From: an uncultured Candidatus Saccharibacteria bacterium
GTDB lineage: Bacteria > Patescibacteriota > Dojkabacteria > SC72
DNA: 64,000 nt
Direction of reading: 5' to 3'
Assembly: GCA_964610125.1 (NCBI GenBank)
Contig: CAZSUV010000001.1
Coordinates: 45,599 to 109,598 of the forward strand
The position numbers and the translations under genes are program-made. The notes under the pieces are model-generated. The model saw nothing but the letters and a program-made list of their open reading frames with translations, had not been told where the DNA came from and made no database searches. Each line of letters starts with the position of its first letter. The stretch's first letter is position 1. This document shows, one piece after another, positions 14,508 to 63,092 of the stretch.

Positions 14508-15144
14508 TTTCTTCTTCTTCTGGATTATATATTGTGTAAAATTCGGAGAGTAACTCAGTATTGTTCAATTGATGCCCAACTAATCCCATACGAGAGAGTT
14601 GCTTAAGAATTTGATCTCTCTTAGGATACAGGAATATCTTAGCCTTTTCTAATAGCTGATCTATAGCCATCTGTCTGTATTTCTCTTCATCTTCATTCTT
14701 TTTCTTGTTACCGAGTAATCCAATTTCTGGTAAAGAGAGTCCTGGACTGTAAGGTATTACAACAAAGAAGTTTTTGTCCAAAACATCATTTTGTACGATT
14801 AGGTTTTGTACAAACTGGGTATATATTTCTAACTGTTTTTTCAACCCTTCACTCATCTGTCTTTCTTTTTGAGATTTGAGGTAATCAACATAGCTTGTGA
14901 TATCTATTCTTTTAGTTCTGATTAATATTTGGATGGGGAAGTTTAGTGCATTAAGTAATCCAGCAAATGCATAGATCTTGTTGTCTTGTTCATATTCTGC
15001 GAGAAGGTCGAAGTTGATAGCGGAGGTTTGGATTACCATTGCTACACTGCCACTCTTGGTTATGACTAAGTCCTCTCGTATATCTCGGACTTCTAATTCA
15101 TCTTGTGTTGAAGCTATTGCTCTAGCTCTTGTATTTTTATCCAC
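14500..15144 (-). CDS. hypothetical cytoplasmic protein translationally coupled to VirB4 (8-nt overlap)
   Basis: ORF only. Position between the VirB3-like and VirB4-like genes. Confidence 0.45.
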   Translation of the reverse strand: MDKNTRARAIASTQDELEVRDIREDLVITKSGSVAMVIQTSAINFDLLAEYEQDNKIYAFAGLLNALNFPIQILIRTKRIDITSYVDYLKSQKERQMSEGLKKQLEIYTQFVQNLIVQNDVLDKNFFVVIPYSPGLSLPEIGLLGNKKKNEDEEKYRQMAIDQLLEKAKIFLYPKRDQILKQLSRMGLVGHQLNNTELLSEFYTIYNPEEEENV

Positions 15145-15145
15145 G

Positions 15146-15946
15146 TTATATTGTTTTAATCTTAATAGGTAGCTTGTTACTTTCGTCTGTGAGTAGTAAA
15201 TCTACCTTAGGGAACTTGTATTGTGGGTGTATGAATTCTAAGGTATATCTTCCTTTGGTCCACATTCTGTTGGTTAAGAAATATCCACTTGCTCCGGTTC
15301 GGTTAGCATACAATATTTTTCCATCTTCCCCCTTCATATATGTTATGACATTTGGTACGGATACCATATCTCCAGTATACAACCATATGTTAATATTCCC
15401 AGGTAATTTTTCTAAGTTTTGGATTGTAAATTCATAGTTCTTTCGGTTTTCTTCTGAGATGATTAATCTGTCTTGTACGATTGGAGTTGGTATGGCCTGA
15501 GGAATATTCTCTACAGGAATCTCTTCATTTGTTGTTTGCAAAAGGTTGCCACCGATAATGGGGCTTGTTTTTTCCTTGAAGCTTTTTTGTACTAACTTGC
15601 CATCTGCAGATGGTTTTAATTCTGGCTTTGTTCTTGCTTGTTGCATTTCACTGTTCATCCATACTCTTTGTGTTGGTGCGGTTATTGCTCCTATATAGTT
15701 CTTTATGAACACATCTGCGTCTTGCTCATTGATAGGGACTAAGCCTAAAAAGATCCCAGCACCAGAAGTGAGGATACATATTGGGATTCCAACTAATCCT
15801 GGGATCGTTTTAGCTACAACGAGATATATCATTAACCCGCCGAATCCCAACCCGATAGCAAGATAGGCGAATTCTTTCAGAGTAAACTTTGAAAAGAGTT
15901 TGAACTCTACATCTAATATATTTTGCGGTATCGGATGTTGTCTCAT
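15146..15946 (-). CDS. VirB3/ConD-like membrane protein (two N-terminal TM helices plus ~190-aa C-terminal domain)
   Basis: TM hairpin YLAIGLGFGGLMIYLVV...GIPICILTSGAGIFLGLV. Sits immediately upstream of the VirB4-like operon genes; stop and next start are 1 nt apart. Confidence 0.45.
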   Translation of the reverse strand: MRQHPIPQNILDVEFKLFSKFTLKEFAYLAIGLGFGGLMIYLVVAKTIPGLVGIPICILTSGAGIFLGLVPINEQDADVFIKNYIGAITAPTQRVWMNSEMQQARTKPELKPSADGKLVQKSFKEKTSPIIGGNLLQTTNEEIPVENIPQAIPTPIVQDRLIISEENRKNYEFTIQNLEKLPGNINIWLYTGDMVSVPNVITYMKGEDGKILYANRTGASGYFLTNRMWTKGRYTLEFIHPQYKFPKVDLLLTDESNKLPIKIKTI

Positions 15947-25354: not shown

Positions 25355-25449
25355 TGTATTTCTTTAATAATATAAACTGTCTAAAGTTAGCGTATTATAT
25401 ATATAATTCCTTTGTTTGTAAACATATTCTTTTGTGTTAAACTTGAAGT

Positions 25450-50247: not shown

Positions 50248-53200
50248 ATGGGTATTAAAACACAAAAAGTATTAAGACTAATATCAAAGATAATATTGAT
50301 ATTGGTGGGTGTAGGATTAGTTGGTATTGCTGGCTACTATGTATACAAATCCATAGCGTTTAAACCTCAAAATGTTGTAGTAACCAATATCACAGATGGC
50401 TCTGCTACAGTGACTTGGACAACAACATCCCCTATGAAAGGTATTGTATATGTTAAGAAGGATAAAGGATTACTTCCTGGTCCTCTAGGGATTGTAGGAT
50501 CTAGTATGGCATACGATGACAGAGATGTGAGTGATGCTCAGAAGACTTGTGTTGATGTATTTAACAAAAAAGCTTCCGAAACTAAAGATTCAACATTTAG
50601 TGTAAGTGGTAGTAACTTTGATTGTGAGAATGTTAAGGTTACTAAAATGGGATCTTACTACACCCACAGTGTAACAGTAACTGATTTGGATGAGAATTCT
50701 ACATACAACTTTGTAGTAGGTGATGGTATATGGAGTTTTAAAGAGAGTGTTTCAATAGTTAAAACATTTGGTGTATTAGAAACCATTGGAGAACCTAAAC
50801 CAATATTTGGGAAAGTCGTTGGTGATGATGAAACTGTTTCTGAAGATGGTTTAGTATATATTACTTTCAATGATGGTAGCGAAGGCAAGGACAGTATTGT
50901 TTACAGTAGTACAACTAATGATGATGGAGGATGGTATGTGGATGCATCTAGTGTTAGAGATTCCAATGGGAATGTTATTTCACTTGAGTTAACCAATGAT
51001 TCCTTTAAAGCCAAAGGGGTGTACAAGAACTATGGTAGTAGTGATGAACAGATCTGGGTTTTAGGATACTTCAATGGCGCATATCCTGATATAACGGTAA
51101 AGAAAAGTATTCCTACTAGTATGGGGATATTCGGTAGGTTAGTAATGGGCGTGTATGCATCATGTACTTATGAGGATGTTAATGCTGCTGCCCATGGCGG
51201 GCCAGCGCTTGATTCTTCTAAGTGTGATCTCACAAATCTTACAGATGCAGAAACAAAAAAATTGGGTTATGGAAATGTAATAAGATTATTAAATGTGCAA
51301 AATGGTGGAGATGCTAACGCTACAATACAAAAAGTATTTGGTAGCTCTGATCCTATAACCATAGCGGGAAACATCAATGCTGTGTATGGAACTACTCTCG
51401 ATGGTACGTCTACGAAAGTAACGATAGATAATGCTTCGAGTCGTTACGCAGATGTTCACGGAGAAAGTACTAGTGCAAATGGAGATGTAAAAAAGGAAGA
51501 TTGTATTGGTGGAATACCAGGAGGAGGTAGAGCGGCTGGTTGTTATAAATCTTCTTCATATTGTAGTGATACGCTTACATGCCATAAGAATCCGGATGGA
51601 ATTGTTGTTTCTTGCGAGGAAATTGCTGGTAAGTGTGGTTATGTTGCCCCCCCTAACGCCCCAGTTTGTTCTCCAATTGTTTGTACTCCAACGGGTCAAG
51701 CATCTTCCATTATGTGTGTTGATGGTGTAGTTAAGTCATACTCTAATAGTAGTTGTAGCAGCTCAGGAACTGGTAGTGAGCAGAATAGTATTGGACTAAA
51801 GTGTAGAAGTCGTAACTTTAATGATTGCGGAACAGGGAAAATATGTGTTGATAAAAAATGTACTTCTGCAAGAGATGCTACCCAAACGAGTTGTGGAGGT
51901 TATGCTATAGATCATTGCGAAAAATCTGGAGAGAATCAATATAAAATTTGTACATCTGCTGGTTGGGCTTTTGGAACTGGTACATGTGATGGTGTTGGGG
52001 GTAGTAATACAACTGCAGGAAGTTTCTCTTGCGATGAAAACAGAAAGTGTGCAGTAACCTTTGGAGATCAAACAGTAACAGTAACATCTACTCAAATGAA
52101 GAAGATATTGAATGAATCATATACTTCTGGGGACGGTGTCATCGTGGCTTCCAATATAGATATCAATAAATTCCTTAAATTTGGTGGAACCAATGCCGCG
52201 AATATTGTATCAGACAATCTGGCATTGAAAGAAGTTGCAATTAAAGAGTTAAGCATTTGGGAAGAAGAAGTTACTAAATATACTGCAGGTACAGTGCCAG
52301 ATATAACGGATAAAATTAAGGCGCTTTGTGATGCACTTGGAGGAACAACTAATAACTCATATAATCCGACAAATTGTACTTTACCAGAAACTCAGAATCT
52401 TAATCCATTTAAACCTTCTAGAGTATATGCTGCGGATTCATCTTCTGATTCATACACCTTATATATGCCAGAGTATGGGATGTATAGTTTTCAATTAGGG
52501 AATTATACTGTTTCAACTGAAGTCTCGGATGGTAACACCATATATCTTTTCTACATTGAGACTAATGGCAAGGAAGGTTTCCAGATACCGATAGACCCGG
52601 ATAATCCAACTTCTGAGGAAGATATAATTTTGAATTCTGCTTCGTATCAAATAACCTATAAACAAGAGTCTACAGCCCAGCAGTATGAGATTAAAAAAGG
52701 AATTAATATTATTTCCTTTGACTTTGTACCAGTATCAATAGATTCCGGTGCCTATACAGCTCAAGATATTATAATTCAAGCATCAGACAATGGAGTAGAA
52801 GTCCAATACATCTCAACCTTTGAAGGAGGTAGGTGGAATAGTGGATATTCATGCTCAAGTGGAACATGTACAGGGAACAATTTCATCGTAGTTCCTGGTA
52901 AAGGATATCTAGTATATGCAACCGAGGATGGAACAGTAACAATCCCAGGATATAATCTAACCTCATCAGTACCCATAGCATTCTCAGCTGGATGGAACCT
53001 AGTAGGAGTACACGGATATACTACAGCATATACAGCACGATCATTTATTGACTCCATAAATAGTATCAATGGTCTTACCGCAAACAATGTGTCATGGTGG
53101 CCTACATCCAAGAGTAAATACGAAGGAGTAGAGGTAGACAATGGAACACAATATGGATTAGATTTCTCAATAAGTCCAAATAATGGATATTTTGTAAGAA

Positions 53201-53292
53201 TATCTAAATTTGCGCCAACAGATACCAAGTGTAAATCTTTGATCTGGAATACCGGTGGAAGCCTAAATGGATCTTGTGGAAATACAAAATAA
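50248..53292 (+). CDS. giant signal-anchored surface protein (1014 aa) with N-terminal FN3-like domain and Cys-rich central region
   Basis: TM ILILVGVGLVGIAGYYVY; VVVTNITDGSATVTWTTTSPMKGIVYV (FN3-like); ~30 Cys in the aa 400-600 region. Confidence 0.6.
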   Translation: MGIKTQKVLRLISKIILILVGVGLVGIAGYYVYKSIAFKPQNVVVTNITDGSATVTWTTTSPMKGIVYVKKDKGLLPGPLGIVGSSMAYDDRDVSDAQKTCVDVFNKKASETKDSTFSVSGSNFDCENVKVTKMGSYYTHSVTVTDLDENSTYNFVVGDGIWSFKESVSIVKTFGVLETIGEPKPIFGKVVGDDETVSEDGLVYITFNDGSEGKDSIVYSSTTNDDGGWYVDASSVRDSNGNVISLELTNDSFKAKGVYKNYGSSDEQIWVLGYFNGAYPDITVKKSIPTSMGIFGRLVMGVYASCTYEDVNAAAHGGPALDSSKCDLTNLTDAETKKLGYGNVIRLLNVQNGGDANATIQKVFGSSDPITIAGNINAVYGTTLDGTSTKVTIDNASSRYADVHGESTSANGDVKKEDCIGGIPGGGRAAGCYKSSSYCSDTLTCHKNPDGIVVSCEEIAGKCGYVAPPNAPVCSPIVCTPTGQASSIMCVDGVVKSYSNSSCSSSGTGSEQNSIGLKCRSRNFNDCGTGKICVDKKCTSARDATQTSCGGYAIDHCEKSGENQYKICTSAGWAFGTGTCDGVGGSNTTAGSFSCDENRKCAVTFGDQTVTVTSTQMKKILNESYTSGDGVIVASNIDINKFLKFGGTNAANIVSDNLALKEVAIKELSIWEEEVTKYTAGTVPDITDKIKALCDALGGTTNNSYNPTNCTLPETQNLNPFKPSRVYAADSSSDSYTLYMPEYGMYSFQLGNYTVSTEVSDGNTIYLFYIETNGKEGFQIPIDPDNPTSEEDIILNSASYQITYKQESTAQQYEIKKGINIISFDFVPVSIDSGAYTAQDIIIQASDNGVEVQYISTFEGGRWNSGYSCSSGTCTGNNFIVVPGKGYLVYATEDGTVTIPGYNLTSSVPIAFSAGWNLVGVHGYTTAYTARSFIDSINSINGLTANNVSWWPTSKSKYEGVEVDNGTQYGLDFSISPNNGYFVRISKFAPTDTKCKSLIWNTGGSLNGSCGNTK

Positions 53293-53316
53293 CTAAATTA
53301 AATATATTTAAATAAC

Positions 53317-53649
53317 ATGGATACAATACCACCAGTATTTTGGATGATAATTGTTAGCGTCTTGACCATAATGGTATGTCTCATACTCTACTATGTAGCT
53401 ATGCTCATAAAAGAGACTAGAACGACTGTAGCAGACGCGAGAGATACAATGAAACAGGCAACCAAGATGCTTCAACAATTAGAACTCATAGTCAATGATG
53501 TCCAAAGCAGTGTATCTACAATTAGGGGAACAGTAGAAGAGGTAAACCAATCAATCTTGGCTCCAATTAGAAAAATAGCGGGTGGGATATTAACAGCATC
53601 TGTATTCCTTGGAGGTCTAAAGAAAAAAGAATCAAGAACTGAAGAATAA
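53317..53649 (+). CDS. small membrane protein with coiled-coil segment
   Basis: N-terminal TM VFWMIIVSVLTIMVCLILYYVAMLI and C-terminal hydrophobic GGILTASVFLGGL. Confidence 0.4.
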   Translation: MDTIPPVFWMIIVSVLTIMVCLILYYVAMLIKETRTTVADARDTMKQATKMLQQLELIVNDVQSSVSTIRGTVEEVNQSILAPIRKIAGGILTASVFLGGLKKKESRTEE

Positions 53650-53688
53650 CGTTGTATTTCTCCGTATTACTAGCTATTATAGTTATTA

Positions 53689-55314
53689 ATGAAGATTGCT
53701 CGTGTACCATCAAAAAAACGTAATATTATAACGTTAATAATACTCATTGTAGGATTACCTCTTGTAGTATATGCATCATATCAAGTCGTACAGATGGTAA
53801 CTAAAGCCAGCGCAGATACTGAGCCCAAAAATGTCTTGATTAGTAATCTAACAACCTCCTCGGCTACTATCACCTGGACTACCGATTCTCAAACCAGAGG
53901 AACTGTAGCTACAGTAAAGAATAGTACAGAAGGGTCACCTGTAATAGACACTAGAGGAAATACTAAACGATATACTCATTTTGTAGAATTAACAGGTCTA
54001 GAACCAAATACAACATATAGCTTTGTCGTAACATCGGATACAACAAAATATACTGCAACAACAGGCGGAAACAAATTTTCATTTAAAACTGCAACAATAA
54101 CTGCTGAAACACCAACCCCTAATCCTATCCATGGCTCAGTAGATGATGTATCTGGAGATGATGTCATTGTATTTGCTGTCTTAAAAGACAAATCGGTATA
54201 TCCAGTCTCTGCAACAATGCCAAGTGGAGGCAATTGGATTATGGATCTCTCTGCTTTTAGAAAAGTCTCTGACAATTCATTAGTCATATCAAATAGTGAT
54301 ACAAATCTTGTACTTGTTGCGATATCTGCTACTGGAAGTGGAGATATGTTCTCAGGATCTTACTCGGAACTTTTTGATAGTAATGGTAAATTAAAGAGTA
54401 CCCAATCTTTTAATATCGGCGAAAACACAGATTTGTATTCATATTTTCCAAATACGGCTATGTTGTTAGCAGAAAATGCTGTAGTTGAAGAGGATGATGA
54501 CAAAGACCCTGTTGTTGTTCCAGAGGAGCCGGAAGAAGAAACTCCTACTGAGGAAGAGCCTACGACTGGAGGGCGTACCTTTAGGTTGGTTAAAGATCTC
54601 TCATGGGAAGATATGGTTACTGCCGGAGGTTTAACATGGCCATATGGAGCAAGTACTGTACAGATAACTAATGTTACTGATACAGGATTTACAGTCATAT
54701 GGGCATCACAGAATAGCGAGCAAGGATACCTCAACTATGGTACAAGCTCTAGGGATCTTTCAAGCCAGGGTAATGATGAGAGAGATGGGGTGACGAATAG
54801 GGGGAAGTATTACATACATAGTGTGTCTTTGACTAGATTACAGCCTGAGACTAAGTACTACTTTGAGGTTGTTTCGGGGACGAACAAATATGACAACAGC
54901 GGAAAGAAATATACGGTATCAACATTTGCAACTTTAAGTACGCCACCTTCATATGTATCGATAACTGGGACTGTAAGTAATATGCCAGAGAGTGAAGAAG
55001 GGATTATATTTGGATATATAAAGGATATAGATGGAACAGGCACAACTGGACAAGCCGGTATTATATCTGCAATCTTAGACGAAAATGGAAAGTGGATATT
55101 ATCAATAGCAGATAGCAGATCCTCTGATGGTAGTGTGTATTTTGAATACACTTCTGCAGATAGTATGTACTTTGATATTCTGAGTACAATTCCTTCATTT
55201 ACACCTGTTGCCGTATCTATGAATGGTATTACTAGTAAGGATATTGGGATAGCTATAAGCTCAAGTGAAACTACTACTACGATACCTAAATTATCTAACT
55301 ATGGAGTTATTTAA
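53689..55314 (+). CDS. signal-anchored surface protein with two FN3-like domains (paralog of the 50248 N-terminus)
   Basis: TM IITLIILIVGLPLVVYA; VLISNLTTSSATITWTTDSQTRGTVA and VQITNVTDTGFTVIWASQNSEQGYLNYG. Confidence 0.6.
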   Translation: MKIARVPSKKRNIITLIILIVGLPLVVYASYQVVQMVTKASADTEPKNVLISNLTTSSATITWTTDSQTRGTVATVKNSTEGSPVIDTRGNTKRYTHFVELTGLEPNTTYSFVVTSDTTKYTATTGGNKFSFKTATITAETPTPNPIHGSVDDVSGDDVIVFAVLKDKSVYPVSATMPSGGNWIMDLSAFRKVSDNSLVISNSDTNLVLVAISATGSGDMFSGSYSELFDSNGKLKSTQSFNIGENTDLYSYFPNTAMLLAENAVVEEDDDKDPVVVPEEPEEETPTEEEPTTGGRTFRLVKDLSWEDMVTAGGLTWPYGASTVQITNVTDTGFTVIWASQNSEQGYLNYGTSSRDLSSQGNDERDGVTNRGKYYIHSVSLTRLQPETKYYFEVVSGTNKYDNSGKKYTVSTFATLSTPPSYVSITGTVSNMPESEEGIIFGYIKDIDGTGTTGQAGIISAILDENGKWILSIADSRSSDGSVYFEYTSADSMYFDILSTIPSFTPVAVSMNGITSKDIGIAISSSETTTTIPKLSNYGVI

Positions 55315-55361
55315 TAGTTTGCTAGAAACCATTATAATATCTGATATAATCAGGGACTTGC

Positions 55362-56669
55362 ATGTATACAGAACATAACCAAACAAAGAAAAACAAGAAA
55401 GCGTTATTATTACTATTAGTACTTGGAGTATTTGGGTTTGTGGCGTTTAAATATACTAAGGTTAAGGATATTGTGGCAAAAGATAATAATGCCGAAGTAT
55501 CAACTTGCTGTGGAGCTACAATTACAGACGAAAGTCCTGATTACACATCAAAATTCTTTCTAGTTGATGAAAGTGGAGAGATATCAGATATAACCCCTGT
55601 AAAATCTCCAACTGAAAACACTGTTTTAGGCACGTCCACTGGTGGATGTACGACAAATAGTCTATATTCGGGAAATTTAGCATGTGTAAAAAGTAAGGAT
55701 AATCAATTCAGTATTAATGGTAAAACATTTCTAGCATCCGAAGTTAACATAACATTGGATTCAATTACTGCACCATTAATCCTCTTTTCAGGATCGAGTA
55801 AGTATGATATTGAGAATTCAAATAGAAATAACCCAGGCGTATATAAACCTGCTGGAGAACAGTACAGCAAAAAACAGTCAGATGTTGTTACAACTCCAGG
55901 AGAAGGACACGATGAGGCTGAGGCAAAATTGGCCAGTACTCCAATAAAGAAAAGCTTTGGTACGGAATATTCTATTACAACATCTGATACGCCCAATTCT
56001 GAACCACAGGGTGATATTGTTGTTAATAAATACGTTGAAAGTGATTGTGTCGAGTGTGGGAATATTTCAAATCCTAACCCGAAGAAAACAAATGACACGT
56101 CGGCTGTTTTCTCGGCAATAAATTTTAAGACACCAGGATACTTGGAAAAGGATGACAATGTGATAGAAATAGAAGGTCAGTGCCCAGATTATCGTGATTT
56201 CAGTCTGCTATCCATAATCAACCCAACAGTTTGTTCAAATCCATGGAATATTTTAGCGGGGACTCTTGCCTCACTTTTTCCATCGCATGATTGGAATCAA
56301 TGTGATCCTGAGAAAGATACGGGATGTGTAAGCTCACAAAATTTAGTAGTAAAGATGAATCCAATTTTTAAAGAAACAAATTCATATATGGATGCTAGAA
56401 ATTCTTCCGCAATGGACCCTAAAGCTGCGGAATCATATGTCCCAATATATGTTTTAACTCCATGTATAGCAAGAGTAACGGGAAAATCTAGTTCATTTGA
56501 CGTTAAAGTTAAGTGTGTATGGGATATGTCATATTTATTTTATGAAAATGCTGCCTCTGCATATGACAGTAATCCAGGCTCAGATGATACAATGAGTGAT
56601 GAGCAGTTCATGGAATACTTAAAAACCGAAACAGTCAAAAGAGGATCAGAAAAACTGGTTTCAATGTAA
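55362..56669 (+). CDS. signal-anchored secreted protein (435 aa), Cys-containing
   Basis: TM ALLLLLVLGVFGFVAF; no motif recognised. Confidence 0.45.
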   Translation: MYTEHNQTKKNKKALLLLLVLGVFGFVAFKYTKVKDIVAKDNNAEVSTCCGATITDESPDYTSKFFLVDESGEISDITPVKSPTENTVLGTSTGGCTTNSLYSGNLACVKSKDNQFSINGKTFLASEVNITLDSITAPLILFSGSSKYDIENSNRNNPGVYKPAGEQYSKKQSDVVTTPGEGHDEAEAKLASTPIKKSFGTEYSITTSDTPNSEPQGDIVVNKYVESDCVECGNISNPNPKKTNDTSAVFSAINFKTPGYLEKDDNVIEIEGQCPDYRDFSLLSIINPTVCSNPWNILAGTLASLFPSHDWNQCDPEKDTGCVSSQNLVVKMNPIFKETNSYMDARNSSAMDPKAAESYVPIYVLTPCIARVTGKSSSFDVKVKCVWDMSYLFYENAASAYDSNPGSDDTMSDEQFMEYLKTETVKRGSEKLVSM

Positions 56670-56695
56670 TAATTTAAATTAATTAAATATTTAAT

Positions 56696-58189
56696 ATGAG
56701 TTACGTATCTAAAACTTACGAATTTCTAGGAAAAGTTGAAAGTCTTTTTAATAGGAAGATGTTTAAAACTGCATTCATAGCAATTTCGAGCATGTTCCTG
56801 TTCTTTGGAGTCATGAATGTGTATGCACAAACAGATGACATCAAAATATCTCCTGACTGGGAGGGAACAAAAGCTTTCTACAATGAAGCTAGTGGAACCA
56901 CTGCAGATGAAGATAATATGACTAGTCATTCAGGGCAGCTAGGTTTGAATACTGCATGGGTTGTATTGTCTACAATGGCACCTGAATATACCGAGGGAGC
57001 TGATGCCCTTATGAATAATCCAGATATCCCTGCCGATATGAAGATGGGTTTGATTGGTTTCTCAGATAATGCTTTAGCTTTTGTATATGAAAATCAGGCG
57101 AATGTTGATGTGATTGCTCATTTACAAGATGAGTGGGTTCCTGGACATAAAGAATCAAGCACAGGACTTTATGCTGCAAATGGAACAAATGTTAGTGGTT
57201 ATCAAAGTTTGATGGATTCTGGAATAGCACCAATCTGGAATCAAATGCGAAATATATCCTATGTGTTTTTTGTTGTGATAATGATTGTAATTGGATTCAT
57301 GATTATGTTTAGAAGCAAACTTGGAGGTCAGACAATGGTATCAATAGGGAATACGATTCCTAGTGTTATTGTAAGTTTGATATTAGTAACCTTTAGTTTT
57401 GCTATAGCAGGTGTAATTATTGATTTTGGAGGAGTCATAGTTGCGTTACTGTATTCAATATTTCAAGGGGAGAGTATTTCTATCGGTAAATTTGGTCCTC
57501 TCTTTAGTCAACTTTTCAGCAAAGATATGGCTGAACAATATGCAAATGTAGTTACAACGGATATTTCGACAGCTCTACAGAGCTTCTCATCCGGTATTGT
57601 TGGTGGATGGTTTAAACTTGTTTGGGCTTTGGATAAGACGATGTTAATGGGAATCGTTGGAATATTAGCAGCAATAATAGGAGCAGGAGTTGTATTTGTA
57701 GGCGCAATAAAGCTTTTGATTACATTATACAAAGCTTATTTTGAACTTCTGCTTAATGTGGTTGTTGGGCCAATAACCATAATGCTTGGTACATTACCAG
57801 GAAAAGAGAATATGAAGATGAATTGGCTTACGAGTATAGTAAGGAATGTGTTGGTTTTTCCAATTGCTTACTTTATTATCAATATACCGATATTCTTAAT
57901 GCAATCAAGTGGTGTCCTATTAAGTCTTCCGGATAAACTTACAGGAGCTAACCTAGGGGATGCTGCTACAACTGCGGCTGTGTTGGATTCAGATAAGGGG
58001 TATATAGGATTGATTATTTCATTTGCATTAAGGGTTTTTGTTCTTTACTATGCATGTCAGGCTCCAAAATTTGCTGAAGCTATTGTACCTGTAATGGAAA
58101 CAAATAAGGCTGCTGCAGAGGCTATGGCTAGTGCAAAGATGAGTATGTCAAAGATGCCTTTGATTGGTGGCCTATTTGCCGGTAAATAG
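56696..58189 (+). CDS. VirB6/TrbL/ConG-like polytopic membrane protein
   Basis: Signal peptide, ~160-aa extracytoplasmic domain, then 6-7 TM helices (e.g. ISYVFFVVIMIVIGFMIMF; LMGIVGILAAIIGAGVVFVGAI). Lies immediately upstream of a wall-hydrolase gene, as in Gram-positive conjugation loci. Confidence 0.45.
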   Translation: MSYVSKTYEFLGKVESLFNRKMFKTAFIAISSMFLFFGVMNVYAQTDDIKISPDWEGTKAFYNEASGTTADEDNMTSHSGQLGLNTAWVVLSTMAPEYTEGADALMNNPDIPADMKMGLIGFSDNALAFVYENQANVDVIAHLQDEWVPGHKESSTGLYAANGTNVSGYQSLMDSGIAPIWNQMRNISYVFFVVIMIVIGFMIMFRSKLGGQTMVSIGNTIPSVIVSLILVTFSFAIAGVIIDFGGVIVALLYSIFQGESISIGKFGPLFSQLFSKDMAEQYANVVTTDISTALQSFSSGIVGGWFKLVWALDKTMLMGIVGILAAIIGAGVVFVGAIKLLITLYKAYFELLLNVVVGPITIMLGTLPGKENMKMNWLTSIVRNVLVFPIAYFIINIPIFLMQSSGVLLSLPDKLTGANLGDAATTAAVLDSDKGYIGLIISFALRVFVLYYACQAPKFAEAIVPVMETNKAAAEAMASAKMSMSKMPLIGGLFAGK

Positions 58190-58217
58190 CATAATTTGAA
58201 TATAGACTTAATAGCTA

Positions 58218-60905
58218 ATGGGAAAGGGTAAGAAGCCAAAAGGTGAAGAAGAGGTATTAGGTCAAATATTTGACTTCATATTTAAGGAGGCTAAAAAAAA
58301 GCCAGATAAACGTAAACCTCTCAAATTCACAGGAATTTCTACTTCTAAGGAGGTAGTTGATGGATTAGCTGCTGCTTTGGAGCAACCTGGAATGTATGTT
58401 ACAGACCAAATACTCTCAAATATGAATGATGCTTTGACTATTGAATTTGGGAGAATAAATGCTGACGAAAGTGGTACAAACAAAGCAAAGCTCACAACAA
58501 CAAGCTTAATCGGTTTTCTTGATGACCCAAATAAGTTTTTTGATAAACCTAAGAATGCTGCGAAGATGGGGATTAGGGAAGCAACAAAAGCAGCCTTTTT
58601 GGGAAGAGTTCATCAAGGGTTAGTGGCTAATGCTTGGGCACATAAATATAATTTAGATCTTGATGCTAAAAAGGCAATACGAATGCATTACCAGGCAGAT
58701 AGCTCGGGAAGAGAAGCTGAAGCTGGAAGGGCTTTTGCGTCTGCATCTGCATTCGCCATAAGTGGAGGAGACGATAACTCAAGAAAAAATTATGTTGCAA
58801 GTAGAAGTGCGGCTTTAGTGGGAAGGGAGATGTTTGGTAGGAGTGGTTGGGAATCTATGAGTGAAGAAAGAAAGGCAGAATTACAAAAGGCAATTATTAG
58901 AGGAAAGGATGCAGTAAAAGATTACCTTGGGACAACATACACAGGTTCTAGTGCTCGCTTAGCAGGAATGGCATTGTCGAAATATGATTTATTATCAAAA
59001 ACGCTTAATAAACCAATAGACGTTTTTGATAACAAAACGTATAACTCTTTAGAAGCTCGAAATCTCGAAGGTCGTATTGAAGATATGAGAATGTATTTAC
59101 GTCGAAATCCTGGAATGAGTATTAATGATAAAGCTAAAGTTGAAGCAGGAATTGATAAATTAGGACAAGCATTGGTAATTGTATCTGGGAATCATGTAGA
59201 TTTGGGTGATATTAATGCCGCAAAAATTGCACTACAAAGTAAAATCTCGGGTTACAAAAGTTCACTATCTGCAGCTCAAAAGGCCGGAGATAAAAATCAA
59301 ATCAAATATTACAAAGAACAAATCCGTAATCTAAAAGAAGGAGATAGAGAATTAAATAATATGCGTTTTTGGGGAACCATTGGAAAGTATGAAGGATTGG
59401 CAGGATCGTTGAAAGATGTATTAGGAGAGGGGTTGGCACCGAATGCGATTACAAGTGTTCTGGATGGCTCGTTTTATGATAAGTATAGGAACTCATTTGC
59501 TTTGCCTGTTACAGATAAAAATAAAGGGAAATTTGGTTCGTATTCGTGGTATTTAAAAGATGAAAAAGGAGTAAAAAAGTTAGAGAAACATGATGAAGAA
59601 ATTACAATATTAACTGCAGATTTGGCAGATTTATCAAAACTTACAGGAGCAGCAAGGAATAAAGCTGCAATGAGAAACAATTTTAATGTGATGATGACAA
59701 ATATATATTATCTTACACCACGTTCAATTCTGAGAACTTTATTTGTAAATGGAGAAGGCTTTGTATATTTATCATATAAAACCTCACAAAATGCTCTCGC
59801 AAAACTTGGAAAGGCAGGATTAGATTTTGACAAATTAATGAAGGATGGTGCGTACAGAAAATCACTAAGGGCTATGGGAGTAGACGCAAATAGTTTATAT
59901 TTAACCCGCGGATTGGCTCAAATATTTTCATTCGGACAACGAAAGAGAGATATGATCAAAACTTGGATGGATGATCATCTATTTAAACAATTAAGACAAA
60001 AGATATATAACAGCCTAATCAAAAAAATAACAGATACGGAAGCTTTAGCATTATTAGAGAAATGGTTAGTGAAAGGAGGCTTCGAGACTATAGCAAAGGC
60101 TTTGGTTATAGGTATTTTAGATGCCTTAGGAATAGCTGCAACTGGAGGTCTAGGATCATTCCTAGTGCCAATATTAAGCGCTCTAGTAGTAGACGTACTA
60201 TATGGAGCTGTAAAAATCATTGCTCAAGTTATATTACTAGTTGGCTTGGGAATGATAGGGTTCATAATATTAGGATTTTCAAATGACAAGAAAAACTTTG
60301 ATTCTCAAACCTATGCATACACTAATGTCGTACCTGGCGAAGTCGTCACTAATCCAAACTTCAAAGGAACTAGTCCAATTGTTCAACCCGATGATCCAAG
60401 TAATATTGGGAACTTCGTAGGTGGAACTCTTCCAGACGGAGAAAAATGTCTCTTGGGCTCCGGTAGCTTCCATTGTTCTCAAGGACCATATGGAAGTTAT
60501 TCACACCAAAAAGTCGCAGCAATAGATGTCACAGGTGTTAACTATTTCTATGCCCCAGCTTTCTGTGGAAACAATAATTGTAAAGTAACATATTCAGGAT
60601 CTACATCCTGTACCAATGGCTATGCAGGAGGAATGATGATATTCACTGCTTCATACGGAGGAAATACATACGAATTTAAGCTCATACACGTACAACCAGG
60701 AGCTGGAAATGGAGCAACACTCTCTTCTGGGCAACGTGTAGCAAGAGTAATGACTGTACAAGAAACTACAAATGCTTGCTCCTCTGGAATGCATCTGCAT
60801 TTACAAACGAAGATGAATGGAAGTGTTGTGAACCCAAGAGATGTATTAAGCAACAGCACTTCTAGTGGAGGGTTCTCATGTAGCGTAAGTGTATGTGATC
60901 CATAA
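58218..60905 (+). CDS. large membrane protein: ~600-aa Lys/Ala-rich helical N-domain, TM hairpin, C-terminal M23 (LytM-like) peptidase domain
   Basis: TM helices LVIGILDALGIAATGGLGSFLVPILSALVV and ILLVGLGMIGFIILGF. C-terminal SSGMHLHLQTKMNGSVVNP matches the M23 HxH...NG..VNP block. First M23 motif is divergent (SHQKVAAID). Confidence 0.55.
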   Translation: MGKGKKPKGEEEVLGQIFDFIFKEAKKKPDKRKPLKFTGISTSKEVVDGLAAALEQPGMYVTDQILSNMNDALTIEFGRINADESGTNKAKLTTTSLIGFLDDPNKFFDKPKNAAKMGIREATKAAFLGRVHQGLVANAWAHKYNLDLDAKKAIRMHYQADSSGREAEAGRAFASASAFAISGGDDNSRKNYVASRSAALVGREMFGRSGWESMSEERKAELQKAIIRGKDAVKDYLGTTYTGSSARLAGMALSKYDLLSKTLNKPIDVFDNKTYNSLEARNLEGRIEDMRMYLRRNPGMSINDKAKVEAGIDKLGQALVIVSGNHVDLGDINAAKIALQSKISGYKSSLSAAQKAGDKNQIKYYKEQIRNLKEGDRELNNMRFWGTIGKYEGLAGSLKDVLGEGLAPNAITSVLDGSFYDKYRNSFALPVTDKNKGKFGSYSWYLKDEKGVKKLEKHDEEITILTADLADLSKLTGAARNKAAMRNNFNVMMTNIYYLTPRSILRTLFVNGEGFVYLSYKTSQNALAKLGKAGLDFDKLMKDGAYRKSLRAMGVDANSLYLTRGLAQIFSFGQRKRDMIKTWMDDHLFKQLRQKIYNSLIKKITDTEALALLEKWLVKGGFETIAKALVIGILDALGIAATGGLGSFLVPILSALVVDVLYGAVKIIAQVILLVGLGMIGFIILGFSNDKKNFDSQTYAYTNVVPGEVVTNPNFKGTSPIVQPDDPSNIGNFVGGTLPDGEKCLLGSGSFHCSQGPYGSYSHQKVAAIDVTGVNYFYAPAFCGNNNCKVTYSGSTSCTNGYAGGMMIFTASYGGNTYEFKLIHVQPGAGNGATLSSGQRVARVMTVQETTNACSSGMHLHLQTKMNGSVVNPRDVLSNSTSSGGFSCSVSVCDP

Positions 60906-60922
60906 TTTGAAAAATATTAATA

Positions 60923-61900
60923 ATGGATAAAAAGAAAAAGATTGTCTTAATTGTAATCATAGGAATATTTGTAATAGCCTTGATTATCGCCTTGTACTTT
61001 GTGTTCAAATCACAAACCAATCCATATCCCAAGGAAGCCATTAAACAAGAATCACTCAATTCGACCACTGAAACCATTGCCCTGGGGGATACAGATATTG
61101 AATCATCAGATGGTTACCTATACACCGTCTCCAAAACCGTTATGGTTGAAAAAGTAGCAGAATTTGCGTACAGCCTTAGTCCCAAACTCATACAAACAAT
61201 CAATGAAAAAGGATCTTACTATGAATGGCGTAATGGAGAGGATTATGTAATCTACGAACTTGAACAAAATACCGTTATCTTTGCTTTAAAACAGGGTGTA
61301 ATTTGGAATGAAGCTAGTATCAATGGATACTCATTCACTCAATTTTCAAAGAATTACTTTGGAAAAAACTGGACATATACAACCGCGGAAAGCGAAAAAC
61401 AACCAAGTGGAGAAACAATATACTATGCAAAAAGACAGATCGAGGGAATAAATGTGGAAATGGTTTTAAACAATCAGTCTACTGACTATCTGGCTATAAA
61501 AAACGGAAAAATAGTATATGGTAAAATCCTGTTATCAGATTTTGTAAAAGTAGAAGGCAAACTTCCATTAATTAGTTCAGAAGATTTAGATAAATACCTC
61601 AACCTTGAAAGCTACCCTAAGGAAATATATCCAGAATATGGTCCAATACAAAATACGATACTATCAGCAGTTGATTACAAAAGCGAAGATTTCGATACAA
61701 TAGCGAAATCTATGACAAATTGTAAGAGCTTATCATCTAGCATAATATATCTTTACAAATCTCTTAACCAAGGCAATCTAACCCCTGTATACAAACTTGA
61801 CTTGCAGTGTGAGCTAACGTACAAAGATACGATATATACAATCCCTGCAATAGGGTACGTTAATGCAATTGATCCTAAATACGTATCTACCGCGGAGTAA
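60923..61900 (+). CDS. signal-anchored extracytoplasmic protein (325 aa)
   Basis: TM IVLIVIIGIFVIALIIALYFVF; no motif recognised. Confidence 0.45.
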   Translation: MDKKKKIVLIVIIGIFVIALIIALYFVFKSQTNPYPKEAIKQESLNSTTETIALGDTDIESSDGYLYTVSKTVMVEKVAEFAYSLSPKLIQTINEKGSYYEWRNGEDYVIYELEQNTVIFALKQGVIWNEASINGYSFTQFSKNYFGKNWTYTTAESEKQPSGETIYYAKRQIEGINVEMVLNNQSTDYLAIKNGKIVYGKILLSDFVKVEGKLPLISSEDLDKYLNLESYPKEIYPEYGPIQNTILSAVDYKSEDFDTIAKSMTNCKSLSSSIIYLYKSLNQGNLTPVYKLDLQCELTYKDTIYTIPAIGYVNAIDPKYVSTAE

Positions 61901-61919
61901 ACTGTGATACAATAGGTCT

Positions 61920-63092
61920 ATGAAATCACTCTTCAAACTCATTTTTACACTCATTCTTTTGCTAATACCAGCAAAGATTTTTGCATACACAATCAACACT
62001 GTAACAGATCAAAAGTTTGATGCTACAATTGCGGATCAAACACAAACAAAGTATGTAACCCCAACTACCATATATATATCCCAAATCACTACAACCTCTC
62101 CAGAGCTACAAAAAAATCCATCGCTTTGGGTCAAAACCTTGTATTACTATTCCATAACCAGATTACATTTCGCAGACCTCCCATACAACTACCTTGTTGA
62201 TACTAATGGGGCAATATATGAAGGCCGAAGTGGAGGTATAGGGGCAAACCCAGAGCTCAGAGATGCTCAAGGAAGCATCTTGATAGGATACCTCTCCAAT
62301 GATTCCATACTAACCAATAGGGCATCTACATCACTTCGAAGTCTTGTAGATTCAATTGCTTCAACCTGGGGAATAGCAAACCTCTCCGTAGTAAAGCTAA
62401 CCATCTCTCAACAAGAAGGACAATTAAGCAAATTAGTACCAGAAGAACTAACTGGAGAATTTAAACAATCAGTCTTAGATACATTCTCAGGATGGACAGG
62501 ATATACCACTGAGAAACTTACGTACAAAGCGAAAATAGAGGAAGTAACTTACAACAAAGAAGTAACCATAGGGTCAAAATTACATGTAACGGTAAAAGTA
62601 AAAAATCTGAATGATTTCACCTGGTTAACAGACAAAAACCCAATATATATATCAGCCAAAGACGTAAAACAAAGCAGATTTGCCATAAATGGGGTATGGG
62701 ATAGCTTCACAAAACCAACACATATCTCGGATAAAGCAATTAAGTCCGGAGAAACAGCTACATTTGAATTTGATCTTTCAGCTCAAATAGCACCAGGCGA
62801 AACATTTGAAAAATTCGTAGTGCAAAAATTTGATGCTCAACCATTTGCAGAAACTGAGTTTGAAGTAAAATTCAATATTGTAAAAGGAGACAAAACATTA
62901 GTACAGGTATCTTCTTCCGAATATGGATTTGCAAATATTCGAGAATGCCAATGGTATAGTTGTAAGATAATAGATACTGTAGATAACGGAGTGGTATACA
63001 TACTCCTTGCTGAAGAGAACGGTTGGATGAAGATTCAGTACACTGAAAATACAGTAGGATGGGTATTCTCTAGATACATGAAAAAGATTTAA
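61920..63092 (+). CDS. secreted peptidoglycan-binding protein: amidase_2/PGRP-like domain plus C-terminal SH3b-like domain
   Basis: Signal peptide LILLLIPAKIFA; YNYLVDTNGAIYEGRSGGIGAN resembles the amidase_2 core but lacks a canonical first zinc His; C-terminal GWMKIQYTENTVGWVFSRYM is SH3b-like. Confidence 0.45.
   Translation: MKSLFKLIFTLILLLIPAKIFAYTINTVTDQKFDATIADQTQTKYVTPTTIYISQITTTSPELQKNPSLWVKTLYYYSITRLHFADLPYNYLVDTNGAIYEGRSGGIGANPELRDAQGSILIGYLSNDSILTNRASTSLRSLVDSIASTWGIANLSVVKLTISQQEGQLSKLVPEELTGEFKQSVLDTFSGWTGYTTEKLTYKAKIEEVTYNKEVTIGSKLHVTVKVKNLNDFTWLTDKNPIYISAKDVKQSRFAINGVWDSFTKPTHISDKAIKSGETATFEFDLSAQIAPGETFEKFVVQKFDAQPFAETEFEVKFNIVKGDKTLVQVSSSEYGFANIRECQWYSCKIIDTVDNGVVYILLAEENGWMKIQYTENTVGWVFSRYMKKI

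Follow-up and report, generated by a model that had tools for sequence, protein, structure and literature searches.

A conserved eight-gene envelope operon of Dojkabacteria may be the split-off channel and cell-wall module of a type IV secretion system

Introduction

The locus analysed here raises the question of what eight tightly packed genes for envelope proteins, a VirB6-like protein and a wall hydrolase among them, do in an ultrasmall bacterium. The window (the whole stretch of DNA analysed, 64,000 nt) comes from a chromosome of Dojkabacteria (WS6, CPR), as the original prediction of a CPR host had it. That prediction saw in the locus either a split or repurposed type IV secretion system (T4SS) or a novel envelope-spanning apparatus. 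Gram-positive-type T4SSs need both VirB6 and a hydrolase (PMC12857230). The T4SSs of Patescibacteria have no relaxase and often have VirB6 encoded away from virB4, and peptidase and lysozyme genes are needed in the Southlakia T4SS (PMC12102498, PMC10633639).

Results

Gene layout and conservation of the operon

Eight open reading frames, each with an ATG start in the ORF listing, occupy 50248-63092 on the + strand:

g1, 50248..53292, + strand: 1014 aa, signal-anchored surface protein, accessory gene
g2, 53317..53649, + strand: 110 aa, bitopic membrane protein whose N-terminal TM helix is followed by a coiled-coil-like tail
g3, 53689..55314, + strand: 541 aa, signal-anchored surface protein with two (FN3 + beta-sandwich) modules and an acidic linker
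g4, 55362..56669, + strand: 435 aa, signal-anchored extracytoplasmic protein, Cys-rich
g5, 56696..58189, + strand: 497 aa, polytopic membrane protein, VirB6/TrbL-like fold
g6, 58218..60905, + strand: 895 aa, cytoplasmic domain of ~620 aa, anchor at 622-690, M23/LAS domain at ~740-895
g7, 60923..61900, + strand: 325 aa, bitopic, with an extracytoplasmic YycI/YycH/PepSY-like tandem alpha+beta fold
g8, 61920..63092, + strand: 390 aa, secreted, with an N-terminal PGRP/amidase_2-like region, a beta-rich middle and a C-terminal SH3b domain

From g1 to g8 the intergenic gaps measure 24, 39, 47, 26, 28, 17 and 19 nt, so that the co-directional genes and their 17-47 nt spacing lie exactly where they had been placed. 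No terminator was found between the eight genes. All eight products have a signal or anchor helix or are polytopic, and the claim that every one is signal-anchored, polytopic or secreted is supported by the hydropathy scan, which gave one N-terminal hydrophobic helix each for g1, g2, g3, g4 and g7, a signal-peptide-like N-terminus for g8, about 6-7 spans for g5 and a hydrophobic block at residues 622-690 of g6.

All 39 complete loci of other Dojkabacteria species keep the order g2-g8 despite protein identities down to 22-46% (medians 27-46%), which points to selection for co-expression. The genomic slot, between rsmE/rsmB/pnp and a UvrD-like helicase gene, is constant in all loci examined. The eight-gene operon is real and strongly conserved, beyond chance. 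As its own refutation, the original prediction had named a set of unrelated surface-protein genes that merely lie side by side. Most of the proteins do lack a characterised homologue, and several domain matches fall under curated thresholds; this reading is nevertheless very unlikely and largely refuted by the conserved synteny, since order and strand are identical in all these diverged loci, the gaps are short and free of terminators, and both g5-g6 and g3-g4-g5 are found linked in other contexts too.

A remnant of an integrated conjugative element or of a plasmid transfer region would explain why the VirB6-like gene is followed by a hydrolase gene, an arrangement that resembles orf15-orf14 in Tn916 and the order conG-cwlT in ICEBs1. 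The invariant chromosomal slot and a uniform GC content (0.36-0.37) make such an origin highly improbable, as do an empty tblastn search of g5 and g6 against 72,556 plasmids and the failure to find an integrase, a relaxase or a coupling protein at the operon. The locus is not a mobile element. That relaxase and coupling protein are missing, as had been noted, agrees with published Patescibacteria T4SSs (PMC12102498, PMC10633639).

The further claim that there is no ATPase in cis holds for T4SS ATPases only. Pfam and motif searches found no nucleotide-binding motif or ATPase family match in the eight proteins, but a UvrD/PcrA-type helicase gene starts at 63109 on the + strand, 16 nt past g8; it is the sole ATPase in cis and looks like a housekeeping gene.

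A VirB6-like fold in g5

The description of g5 as VirB6/TrbL-like finds support at the level of the fold, the sequence match being sub-threshold. Pfam TrbL matched at E 0.0048 and 17.1 bits, under the 25.9-bit cut-off, with weak profile matches spanning residues 264-404. TrbL was matched by 3 of 28 close and 5 of 86 wider members of the g5 family, in which TrbL, TrbC and T4SS_pilin were the only recurring Pfam families. An AF2 model of moderate confidence (pLDDT 61.6 overall, 70-86 in the TM core) was compared with the PDB by Foldseek, and the top six matches, identified by entry, were chains of the R388 TrwJ/VirB5-TrwI/VirB6 stalk complex; in the structural ranking TrwI came best, with TrwI and TrwJ chains matched by entry, and DotA second. 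TrwI was not found by sequence with the g5 family profiles. The model thus gives good support for a VirB6-like fold, and a translocon subunit is the proposed identity of g5.

With 3618 representatives at E<=1e-3 the family is very large, and remote members lie directly 3' of PF18895 T4SS pilin gene arrays. Two remote loci adjoin type IV pilus genes (pilM, pilB/C), not T4SS genes. At one of these (L092/L093), g5-like and g6-like genes are flanked by pilD-pilC-pilB on one side and pilM...ftsQAZ on the other, and one gene 3' of the g5-like gene stands a TM+M23 homologue (E 1e-24); at the other (L086), g5 paralogues adjoin pilM and a weak homologue of the g6 N-terminal domain lies 3' of them. The adjacency of g5 and g6 therefore recurs outside the canonical locus, weakly so in L086, and the predicted succession of a VirB6-like gene and a wall-hydrolase gene is confirmed in divergent loci as well.

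Wall-directed proteins g6, g7 and g8

The cytoplasmic domain of g6 is helical and Lys/Arg-rich, an orphan for which profile and Pfam searches matched no known family. The M23/LAS metallopeptidase domain is Cys-rich and extracytoplasmic. For g6 alone the Pfam Peptidase_M23 match has an E of 0.01; 22 of 30 family members match (best 1.3e-6), and the g6 profile matches the M23 structures 8s3m (0.002), 9gy1 and ShyA. The residues H763-x6-D770, H824 and H859-x-H861 are kept in 24-27 of 30 sequences, and eight Cys are conserved. Judged by these motifs, g6 is a predicted TM-anchored M23 peptidase with its metal and catalytic motifs intact, and by analogy we propose a VirB1-like wall hydrolase. Of the layout first suggested, the membrane-anchored M23 domain stands; instead of the TM hairpin, an odd number of spans is the likelier topology.

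A regulator or chaperone of the hydrolase is proposed for g7. A VirB8/TcpC-like assignment was rejected for this protein, the fold being YycI/YycH/PepSY-like, and no VirB8/TcpC-like fold was found for the operon proteins.

For g8, an amidase_2 plus SH3b protein had been expected. The SH3b domain is secure (SH3_3 E 7.5e-8, over the Pfam cut-off; 2e-7 for the g8 profile against the SH3b of 4krt), and the PGRP/amidase_2-like fold is recovered from the PDB by the family profile at residues 40-160 (PGRP-SD 7e-5, other PGRPs and an amidase) and by hhalign, which aligned the T7-lysozyme core. Pfam gave no Amidase_2 match at E<0.1. The catalytic zinc ligands are absent, with no conserved His or Cys at residues 25-200 in 26 family members. 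Without these ligands g8 probably binds the wall and does not act as an amidase, and we propose a peptidoglycan-binding anchor. Its middle ~150 aa are beta-rich, with no fold assigned.

Surface and small membrane proteins g1 to g4

The FN3 domains foreseen in g1 and g3 are borne out. In g3, Pur_ac_phosph_N (E 4.4e-20) and fn3 (E 1.8e-10) each match two stretches; the protein is kept in 66 loci at a median identity of 42% and is a candidate adhesin or spacer. In g1, an N-terminal TM helix is followed by an FN3 domain (Pur_ac_phosph_N-type), a beta-sandwich module, a Cys-rich middle region with 30 Cys and a C-terminal domain with no known fold assigned; across the family both terminal parts are conserved, whereas the middle varies. 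The Pur_ac_phosph_N match is sub-threshold for g1 alone, yet 22 of 22 family members match, and the beta-sandwich module is common to g1 and g3 (g1 profile against g3, E 4e-42). Because just ~16-17 of the 46 loci covering rsmE..g2 have a g1-like gene, g1 is an accessory gene. The first core gene is g2, kept in 61 loci, with weak, sub-threshold Pfam matches only (DUF948, MCPsignal). Most of the 12 Cys of g4 are conserved; its profile had no match among PDB sequences and no Pfam match recurs, leaving an orphan without detectable family. At a divergent locus (L091) a g4-like gene again lies 5' of a g5-like gene, and the order g3-g4-g5 recurs.

A distant ATPase module

Four genes of the opposite strand form the putative partner of the operon:

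15146..15946, - strand: PrgI/VirB3-like membrane protein that opens the ATPase module, proposed operon partner
14500..15144, - strand: TraC-like protein, 214 aa
12081..14507, - strand: VirB4-like ATPase, 808 aa, 35.7 kb from the start of g1
11858..12100, - strand: soluble ORF of 80 aa that overlaps the VirB4 stop and has the conserved C-terminus LSNPFKGY

The PrgI match (E 9.6e-7, 29.7 bits) is over the cut-off of 27, and L096 has PrgI at the same position. The window copy of the 214-aa protein had no Pfam match; its orthologues in L095 and L096 carry PF26593 TraC-like, and it is possibly a TrsD-type VirB4 N-terminal-like protein of Patescibacteria, in which TrsD adjoining VirB4 has been described (PMC12102498). 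VirB4 matches P-loop_TraG (E 1e-28), AAA_10, TraC_F_IV and CagE_TrbE_VirB, with 70-99% identity among its best 120 homologues. No other T4SS ATPase is encoded in the window, which confirms the claim of a single VirB4-like ATPase 36 kb off. The 80-aa ORF is probably the fourth gene of the module, orthologous genes of 73-75 aa being called in L095 and L096.

The expected synteny of operon and VirB4 was found in part: three species have the two on one contig at a distance of 33-42 kb (in the two others VirB4 is 33-35 kb from g5), but virB4 or prgI lies within 10 kb of the operon in 0 of 80 loci. VirB4 being present in most Patescibacteria, co-occurrence has no power to discriminate. Besides those of the operon, no VirB6-like or hydrolase gene was found near the VirB4 module: none in the window and, for two relatives, none within +/-10 kb.

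Discussion

A VirB4 module without VirB6 or hydrolase, together with an operon that holds both, makes a split T4SS the best reading of the locus; a novel apparatus is not required by the data. With a confidence slightly beyond an even chance, we take the operon to be a detached module for channel, cell wall and surface that belongs to the known relaxase-less Patescibacteria T4SS, a chromosomal, MPF_FATA-derived system whose envelope module would, in the class Dojkabacteria, be encoded apart from the ATPase module. The M23 domain of g6, the recurrence of g5-g6 and the T4SS pilin arrays before remote g5 genes support this reading. The T4SS link itself passes through one protein, g5, which fails the Pfam threshold.

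All proteins but g5 are generic wall and surface modules (M23, PGRP-like, SH3b, FN3, YycI/PepSY-like), which counts against a T4SS and for a stand-alone operon of wall remodelling and host or surface attachment, independent of VirB4. It might clear a way through the wall for type IV pili or work at a division or attachment site, g5 being a VirB6-fold membrane scaffold co-opted long ago. The operon never adjoins virB4, the g5 relatives beside pilus genes fit such a role, and in Bacillus the YycH/YycI and PepSY folds are tied to the control of wall hydrolases. We hold this explanation to be possible but doubtful: the VirB6/DotA fold is so far known from T4SSs only, other remote g5 relatives sit 3' of T4SS pilin arrays, and the VirB4 module would be left without channel or hydrolase; type IV pilus genes are common in these genomes, and finding them beside g5 relatives in two of five contexts may therefore be coincidence.

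Alternatively, the operon could be a self-contained, previously undescribed envelope-spanning apparatus, its VirB6-like pore energised or gated by the ~620-aa domain of g6 or by another factor. The lack of a known family for that domain, the orphans g2 and g4, the tight, class-wide unit and the size of the g5 family, mostly without T4SS annotation, would suit this idea. It is improbable, given eight proteins devoid of ATPase signatures beside a housekeeping-looking helicase, and pairing the operon with an otherwise incomplete VirB4 module is simpler.

In a split T4SS, PrgI, the TraC-like protein and VirB4 (12081-15946, - strand) would form the cytoplasmic and membrane motor, and oligomerised g5 the VirB6-like translocon in the single membrane. 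Anchored beside it, g6 would cut peptidoglycan cross-links locally through its M23 domain to allow passage, the part played elsewhere by VirB1-type enzymes, and its cytoplasmic domain could provide the coupling to the motor. The peptidase may be restrained or positioned by g7, the assembly held to the wall by g8 with its catalytically dead PGRP domain and SH3b, and g3, plus g1 where present, may serve as surface spacers or adhesins towards a host cell. Protein or nutrient is as likely a cargo as DNA. Domain and fold assignments are the demonstrated part of this working model; the functions built on them are our proposals, and g2 and g4 receive no role.

Comparison with known systems

Like VirB6/TrbL (R388 TrwI; PF04610) and Legionella DotA, g5 is a polytopic helical membrane protein. 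It differs from TrwI/TrbL in lying under the Pfam threshold, in having no HMM-detectable similarity to the TrwI sequence and in an extra N-terminal extracytoplasmic region of ~140 aa, and from TrwI and DotA systems in a monoderm host without VirB5, VirB2 or outer-membrane complex. An N-terminal PGRP/T7-lysozyme core and a bona fide C-terminal SH3b place g8 with non-catalytic PGRPs bearing SH3b; unlike in Amidase_2 enzymes, the zinc-binding His/His/Cys are not conserved in its family. No sequence similarity links g7 to YycH/YycI (WalK regulators) or YpeB/PepSY, and no WalRK two-component system lies nearby.

The succession of a VirB6-like protein, an anchored hydrolase and a bitopic alpha+beta protein is that of conG-cwlT, orf15-orf14-orf13 and prgH...prgK-prgL (pCF10). 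The parallel drawn with conG-cwlT holds for gene order and not for sequence, hhalign having found no similarity to PrgH, PrgK or Tn916 Orf13. Like g6, PrgK of pCF10 joins a LytM/M23 domain to a long intracellular part (PMC12857230). In contrast to these Gram-positive modules, g6 has M23 only, without SLT, muramidase, CHAP or NlpC/P60; the third protein, g7, is YycI/PepSY-like, not NTF2/VirB8-like; and the operon lies off mobile elements, without relaxase or coupling protein.

Among the closest systems is the chromosomal T4SS of Patescibacteria, for example SEML1_0006-0019 of Southlakia epibionticum (Wang et al. 2023, PMC10633639; Quinonero-Coronel et al. 2025, PMC12102498). Both have monoderm MPF_FATA-like PrgI/VirB3, TrsD/TraC-like, VirB4 and VirB6-like proteins and a peptidase-type hydrolase; both are chromosomal with relaxase and coupling protein absent nearby; and FN3 surface proteins matter for the epibiotic lifestyle. 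A VirB2-like pilin array is absent from the window, and g2, g4, g7 (YycI-like), g8 (dead PGRP + SH3b) and the 620-aa domain of g6 are undescribed for the Patescibacteria T4SS. Here the VirB6-like and hydrolase genes occupy a separate operon, 33-42 kb from virB4, which falls outside the +/-20 CDS window of the 2025 survey (PMC12102498).

Results

Layout of the operon

The eight co-directional genes of the original prediction were found in the ORF listing exactly at the coordinates first claimed. All begin with ATG.

Genes of the envelope operon
50248-53292, plus strand, g1, FN3 surface protein
53317-53649, plus strand, g2, orphan
53689-55314, plus strand, g3, FN3 surface protein
55362-56669, plus strand, g4, orphan
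56696-58189, plus strand, g5, VirB6-like by fold
58218-60905, plus strand, g6, M23 protein
60923-61900, plus strand, g7, YycI-like by model
61920-63092, plus strand, g8, predicted wall-binding protein

The intergenic gaps from g1 to g8 are 24, 39, 47, 26, 28, 17 and 19 nt. A promoter/terminator scan found no terminator-like site in any of them, and promoter and terminator counts were not above shuffled expectation. The largest gap, the 47 nt between g3 and g4, holds a promoter-like site (55311-55350, plus strand) directly before g4, where two overlapping, weak sigma-70-like matches (10/12), of which one carries a TG extension, could represent an internal promoter, although promoter-like counts overall fall below shuffled expectation. 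GC content is uniform at 0.36-0.37 in the operon and its flanks, and the 64-kb window contains no tRNA genes or Rfam matches. A hydropathy scan gave a single N-terminal hydrophobic helix each in g1, g2, g3, g4 and g7, and a signal-peptide-like N-terminus in g8. An NCBIfam search of the eight proteins returned nothing useful.

The claim that the operon has no ATPase in cis is correct for T4SS ATPases but not overall: 16 nt past the g8 stop codon, a UvrD/PcrA-type SF1 helicase ORF with the Walker A sequence GAGSGKT begins (63109-64000, plus strand) and continues beyond the window end. Relatives (L001, L003) carry a UvrD helicase of 664-669 aa at the same post-operon position. The gene may be co-transcribed with the operon and is probably housekeeping; PcrA-type helicases serve Gram-positive conjugative elements.

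Conservation and chromosomal position

Homologues of g5 belong to Candidatus Dojkabacteria (candidate division WS6), one protein being identical to g5. One genome per species was scanned for relatives, giving 319, and the best 80 of the 319 loci, which were examined, come from Dojkabacteria or from MAG contigs that are mislabelled or unclassified. The order and strand of g2, g3, g4, g5, g6 and g8 were identical in 39/39 loci with all six genes detectable by tblastn. The operon slot is constant, following pnp, rsmB and rsmE on the opposite strand and preceding the UvrD-like helicase, a G5-domain gene, a TPR gene and EF-G. The first gene, g1, is accessory, since only 16-17 of the 46 loci spanning rsmE to g2 have space for it. 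Because order, strand and slot are kept across loci, the operon is a class-wide, vertically inherited, chromosomal unit with a seven-gene core. An integrated mobile element of the ICEBs1 conG-cwlT type is ruled out by the fixed slot across the class and the uniform GC, and a tblastn search of a plasmid collection found no plasmid relatives of g5 or g6.

Median identity to the window copy is 46% for g8, 42% for g3, 41% for g2, 40% for g5, 34% for g7, 29% for g6 and 27% for g4; it is 58-65% for the flanking housekeeping genes. VirB4 is 70-99% identical among its best 120 homologues, compared with operon protein medians of 27-46% across Dojkabacteria. The envelope and surface proteins evolve much faster than the VirB4 motor.

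g5, a VirB6-like membrane protein by fold

The hydropathy scan placed about 6-7 membrane spans in g5, in keeping with the at least five hydrophobic helices of VirB6/TrbL proteins. Its AF2 model consists entirely of helices, those of the membrane being long, and is of moderate confidence (pLDDT 61.6; TM core 70-86). When this protein was compared by Foldseek with 350,542 PDB chains, the top six matches (E 0.011-0.13, probability up to 1.0) all came from entries of the R388 TrwJ/VirB5-TrwI/VirB6 stalk complex, a match to the entry and not to a named chain, and in this sense g5 has fold similarity to a solved VirB6.

Sequence comparisons were less favorable. Pfam PF04610 (TrbL) scored 17.1 bits against g5 (E 0.0048), below the 25.9-bit gathering score. 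Among 28 close g5 members, TrbL appeared below threshold in three (best 6e-5) and was the sole recurring Pfam family; in the wider family it was found in 5/86 members, followed by TrbC/VirB2 (three members) and T4SS_pilin (one). Ten remote members gave no Pfam match at E<0.01 apart from a spurious one to Herpes_LMP1. Neither of two family profiles, one built from 28 sequences and one from 127, detected TrwI among PDB sequences, and hhalign detected no similarity to PrgH of pCF10, a single-sequence template of low power. The description of this 497-aa protein as VirB6/TrbL-like therefore stands for the fold, which Foldseek supports, but not for membership in Pfam TrbL, and we call g5 VirB6-like by fold only. 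The family itself is large, with 3618 representatives at E<=1e-3 and 1046 at E<=1e-30; its more than 3,600 clusters at 50% identity are mostly unannotated.

g6, an anchored M23 protein with a large N-terminal region

An M23 domain had been predicted in the 895-aa g6, and the family bears this out. Peptidase_M23 is sub-threshold on the window copy (16.5 bits; cut-off 28.7) and matched in 22/30 orthologues (best 1.3e-6), and the g6 family profile matches M23 structures (E 0.002-0.4). The zinc and catalytic motif residues H763-x6-D770, H824 and H859-L-H861 are kept in 24-27 of 30 sequences, H763 and D770 being spaced as in the LAS-type variant (x6) and not as in the classical HxxxD. Eight Cys residues are conserved beside these motifs. 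As judged from these residues, the C-terminal part fits an active, disulfide-stabilized extracytoplasmic metallopeptidase.

Hydropathy marks a hydrophobic block at residues 622-690. Judging from the short homologue at the divergent locus L092, the anchor seems to consist of amphipathic helices leading into a single true TM helix, and not of the TM hairpin originally proposed. Lys and Arg are abundant in the first ~620 residues, which match nothing known and, if the M23 domain lies outside, must be cytoplasmic. No similarity to PrgK of pCF10 was detected by hhalign, again with a low-power, single-sequence template. The protein carries M23 only, and none of the SLT, muramidase, CHAP or NlpC/P60 domains of VirB1-type proteins, so that it would be a functional analogue only of a VirB1-type wall hydrolase. 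Patescibacteria VirB1 homologues with M23 add-on domains have been described (PMC12102498).

g7 and g8

The g7 model (pLDDT 90.3, pTM 0.83) matches YycI, YycH and PepSY, and the protein is bitopic with a tandem alpha+beta fold. That match, together with an hhalign comparison that found no similarity to Tn916 Orf13, rules out a TcpC/ConB/VirB8-like protein (TM plus two NTF2 domains); g7 does not supply the bitopic, NTF2-fold VirB8-like component of MPF_FATA-type or Patescibacteria T4SSs. The g7 profile had no match among PDB sequences, and no sensor kinase gene is adjacent.

The prediction of an amidase_2 plus SH3b protein held for g8 in its SH3b domain and in its likeness to PGRPs and T7 lysozyme, but not in the zinc-binding His/His/Cys set, which is missing. 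Pfam SH3_3 lies above its gathering score at aa 338-387 (32.9 bits against 27, E 7.5e-8), and the g8 profile matches the SH3b repeats of 4krt (E 2e-7). At aa 40-160 the family profile matches PGRP-SD (7.2e-5), several other PGRPs and an amidase, and hhalign aligned the g8 core to T7 lysozyme (E 0.003, low probability). Amidase_2 was not found on g8 at E<0.1. The zinc ligands of T7 lysozyme are H17, H122 and C130; across 26 orthologues no His or Cys is conserved in aa 25-200 of g8, and an invariant Q55 stands where the first zinc His is expected. An active amidase is thereby ruled out and, because the zinc site is missing, g8 is most likely a wall-binding protein rather than an enzyme.

Surface proteins and orphans

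By Pfam, g1 and g3 are FN3 (Pur_ac_phosph_N-type) surface proteins, and they have a TM-FN3-beta-sandwich module in common (profile match E 4e-42). The N- and C-terminal parts of g1 are conserved and its middle is variable in length and sequence, a pattern that fits a fast-evolving host-contact protein; against PDB sequences the g1 profile matched only at the FN3 N-terminus. Across loci g1 measures 880-1418 aa, with a hypervariable Cys-rich center between the conserved ends, and at L061 it is placed after g2, not before. Pfam and profile searches leave g2 and g4 as orphans, and the g4 profile had no match among PDB sequences.

Further surface proteins are encoded elsewhere in the window. Genes for a He_PIG Ig-domain protein (143 aa) and a small FN3 protein (136 aa) adjoin that of a 586-aa surface protein with PSTG, a TM segment and a basic tail (25450-26278, plus strand; 26279-28039, minus strand). 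The 136-aa protein matches the g3 profile (E 1.5e-11), and a 130-aa ORF overlapping the He_PIG gene (25437-25829, minus strand) is probably spurious. In two other species (L095, L096) this trio is again found near VirB4. A sortase gene (37240-38034, minus strand; Pfam E 3.5e-23) is present, as is at least one LPSTG-type sortase substrate, a 345-aa repeat protein (887-1924, plus strand); therefore the genome has sortase-anchored surface proteins.

The VirB4 module and its relation to the operon

The VirB4 module comprises four genes.

Genes of the VirB4 module
15146-15946, minus strand, PrgI-like gene (Pfam PrgI, 29.7 bits; cut-off 27)
14500-15144, minus strand, 214-aa gene with no Pfam match of its own; orthologues at L095 and L096 are PF26593 TraC-like
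12081-14507, minus strand, VirB4 (P-loop_TraG, 1e-28)
11858-12100, minus strand, 80-aa soluble ORF overlapping the VirB4 stop codon, an uncharacterized fourth gene

VirB4 and the VirB3/PrgI-like protein of MPF_FATA-type and Patescibacteria T4SSs are both present, outside the operon. The 214-aa gene may be the counterpart of the TrsD-type VirB4 N-terminal-like protein, which is reported to be more abundant than any other component of Patescibacteria T4SSs. The C-terminus of the 80-aa ORF (...LSNPFKGY) is conserved in the genes of 73-75 aa that occupy the corresponding place at L095 and L096.

No VirB6-like or hydrolase gene occurs in the module, and profile searches with the eight families detected no further copy, either in the window or in the 10 kb on each side of virB4 in two other species. 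VirB4 and g5 share a contig in three species, 42 kb apart in the window and 33 and 35 kb apart in the two others, a spacing that reflects generally conserved chromosome order, but neither virB4 nor prgI lies within 10 kb of the operon in any of the 80 Dojkabacteria loci. No coupling protein or relaxase was recognized among the window ORFs scanned or read, which argues against classical conjugation; both are usually absent in the Patescibacteria T4SS clade (PMC12102498, PMC10633639). On balance we lean towards regarding the operon as the split-off channel, wall and surface module of a relaxase-less Patescibacteria T4SS.

Divergent loci of the g5 family

At L087/L088 and L090 the g5-family gene follows an ECF-sigma gene, a PF18895 T4SS-pilin array and a ~1180-aa orphan protein. 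The arrays at these divergent, unclassified loci (L087:1590-6331; L090:2863-5950) hold 6-8 small PF18895 genes each and match the VirB2-like arrays of Patescibacteria T4SSs (PMC12102498); the window has no such array. A 1685-aa M23 protein is encoded ~10 kb from the L090 locus. At L091, g3-like, g4-like and g5-like genes stand in operon order. At L092/L093 a 365-aa protein homologous to the TM+M23 part of g6 (E 1e-24) is encoded one gene downstream of a g5-like gene, and type IV pilus genes and pilM-ftsQAZ flank the locus. The Dojkabacteria genome GCA_050950125.1 (L086, 8068-12637) has two tandem g5 paralogues (636 and 878 aa) near dnaA/dnaN. After them comes a 684-aa protein with weak homology to the N-terminal domain of g6, so that the arrangement resembles a second or rearranged copy of the module near the origin of replication. 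Since the pairing recurs in divergent loci, g5-g6 is a conserved unit beyond the canonical locus.

At L092:1-17000 and L086:14878-17857, g5-family genes adjoin prepilin peptidase, PilC, two PilB-like ATPases, PilM and ftsQAZ. Chance may explain this adjacency; alternatively, it may hint that VirB6-like proteins are connected with type IV pili in some CPR lineages. The main rival explanation is that the operon serves wall remodelling and attachment independently of VirB4 and is perhaps related to type IV pili. The pilus-flanked L092/L093 locus and the distance from virB4 are consistent with it, and the g5-family contexts as a whole, which point mostly, not exclusively, to T4SS, are less so; we hold it rather unlikely. 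A more novel reading is an autonomous, class-wide host-contact organelle, used for nutrient or macromolecule uptake from the host. In it a VirB6-like pore would be paired with a bifunctional g6, whose orphan 620-aa cytoplasmic domain would gate or energize the pore while M23 cuts the wall; the YycI-like and pseudo-PGRP proteins would control cutting, and in some lineages the apparatus would be tied to type IV pili, not VirB4. This we judge distinctly improbable; if true, monoderms would have a trans-envelope system of a new kind, with the VirB6 fold at its core.

Discussion

MPF_FATA-derived, relaxase-less, chromosomal T4SSs in Patescibacteria, including Dojkabacteria, have been published (PMC12102498 and its preprint; PMC12857230). 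The T4SS is essential in one Saccharibacterium (PMC10633639), and a 2024 perspective calls its role in Saccharibacteria 'completely unknown' (PMC11665869). The published surveys were confined to +/-20 genes around virB4, and only a minority of the genomes they covered showed homologues of VirB6, VirB8 and VirB1. Our literature search found no description of a separate class-wide operon, which lies beyond the survey's +/-20-CDS window. Nor did it find one of a large cytoplasmic domain on an M23 enzyme, or of YycI-like, pseudo-PGRP/SH3b, paired FN3, g2 or g4 proteins as T4SS accessories.

The reading of the operon as a split-off T4SS module builds on the observed gene layout and conservation, the domain and fold assignments, the status of the motifs and the lack of a VirB6-like or hydrolase gene near VirB4; from these we infer the roles of the proteins. 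g5 would be the translocon in the membrane that serves the PrgI/TraC-like/VirB4 motor. g6 would open the wall locally and may contact the motor via its cytoplasmic domain, and g7 could modulate g6, by analogy with the PepSY/YpeB and YycH/YycI systems. g8 would tether the assembly to peptidoglycan, and g3 and g1 would serve as outward spacers or adhesins.

The operon bears, through candidate parts, on the role and architecture of the essential Patescibacteria T4SS. For Dojkabacteria it supplies specific, class-wide candidates for the parts that are missing, namely those for the channel, for breaching the wall and for the surface. New accessory components are suggested as well: a TM-anchored M23 enzyme extended by a large cytoplasmic domain, a partner of the YycI/PepSY type, a PGRP-SH3b anchor that is catalytically dead, and FN3 surface proteins. 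If the VirB4 link is confirmed, searches for CPR T4SS components should reach beyond the virB4 neighborhood. The result is incremental, not field-changing; it helps to annotate and dissect CPR T4SSs and will be no surprise to specialists.

The original prediction likened the operon to conG-cwlT of ICEBs1. With respect to that pair and to orf15-orf14-orf13, the operon has another hydrolase type, another fold of the third protein, no detected sequence similarity and no mobile-element setting; the likeness that holds is that of the gene arrangement alone.
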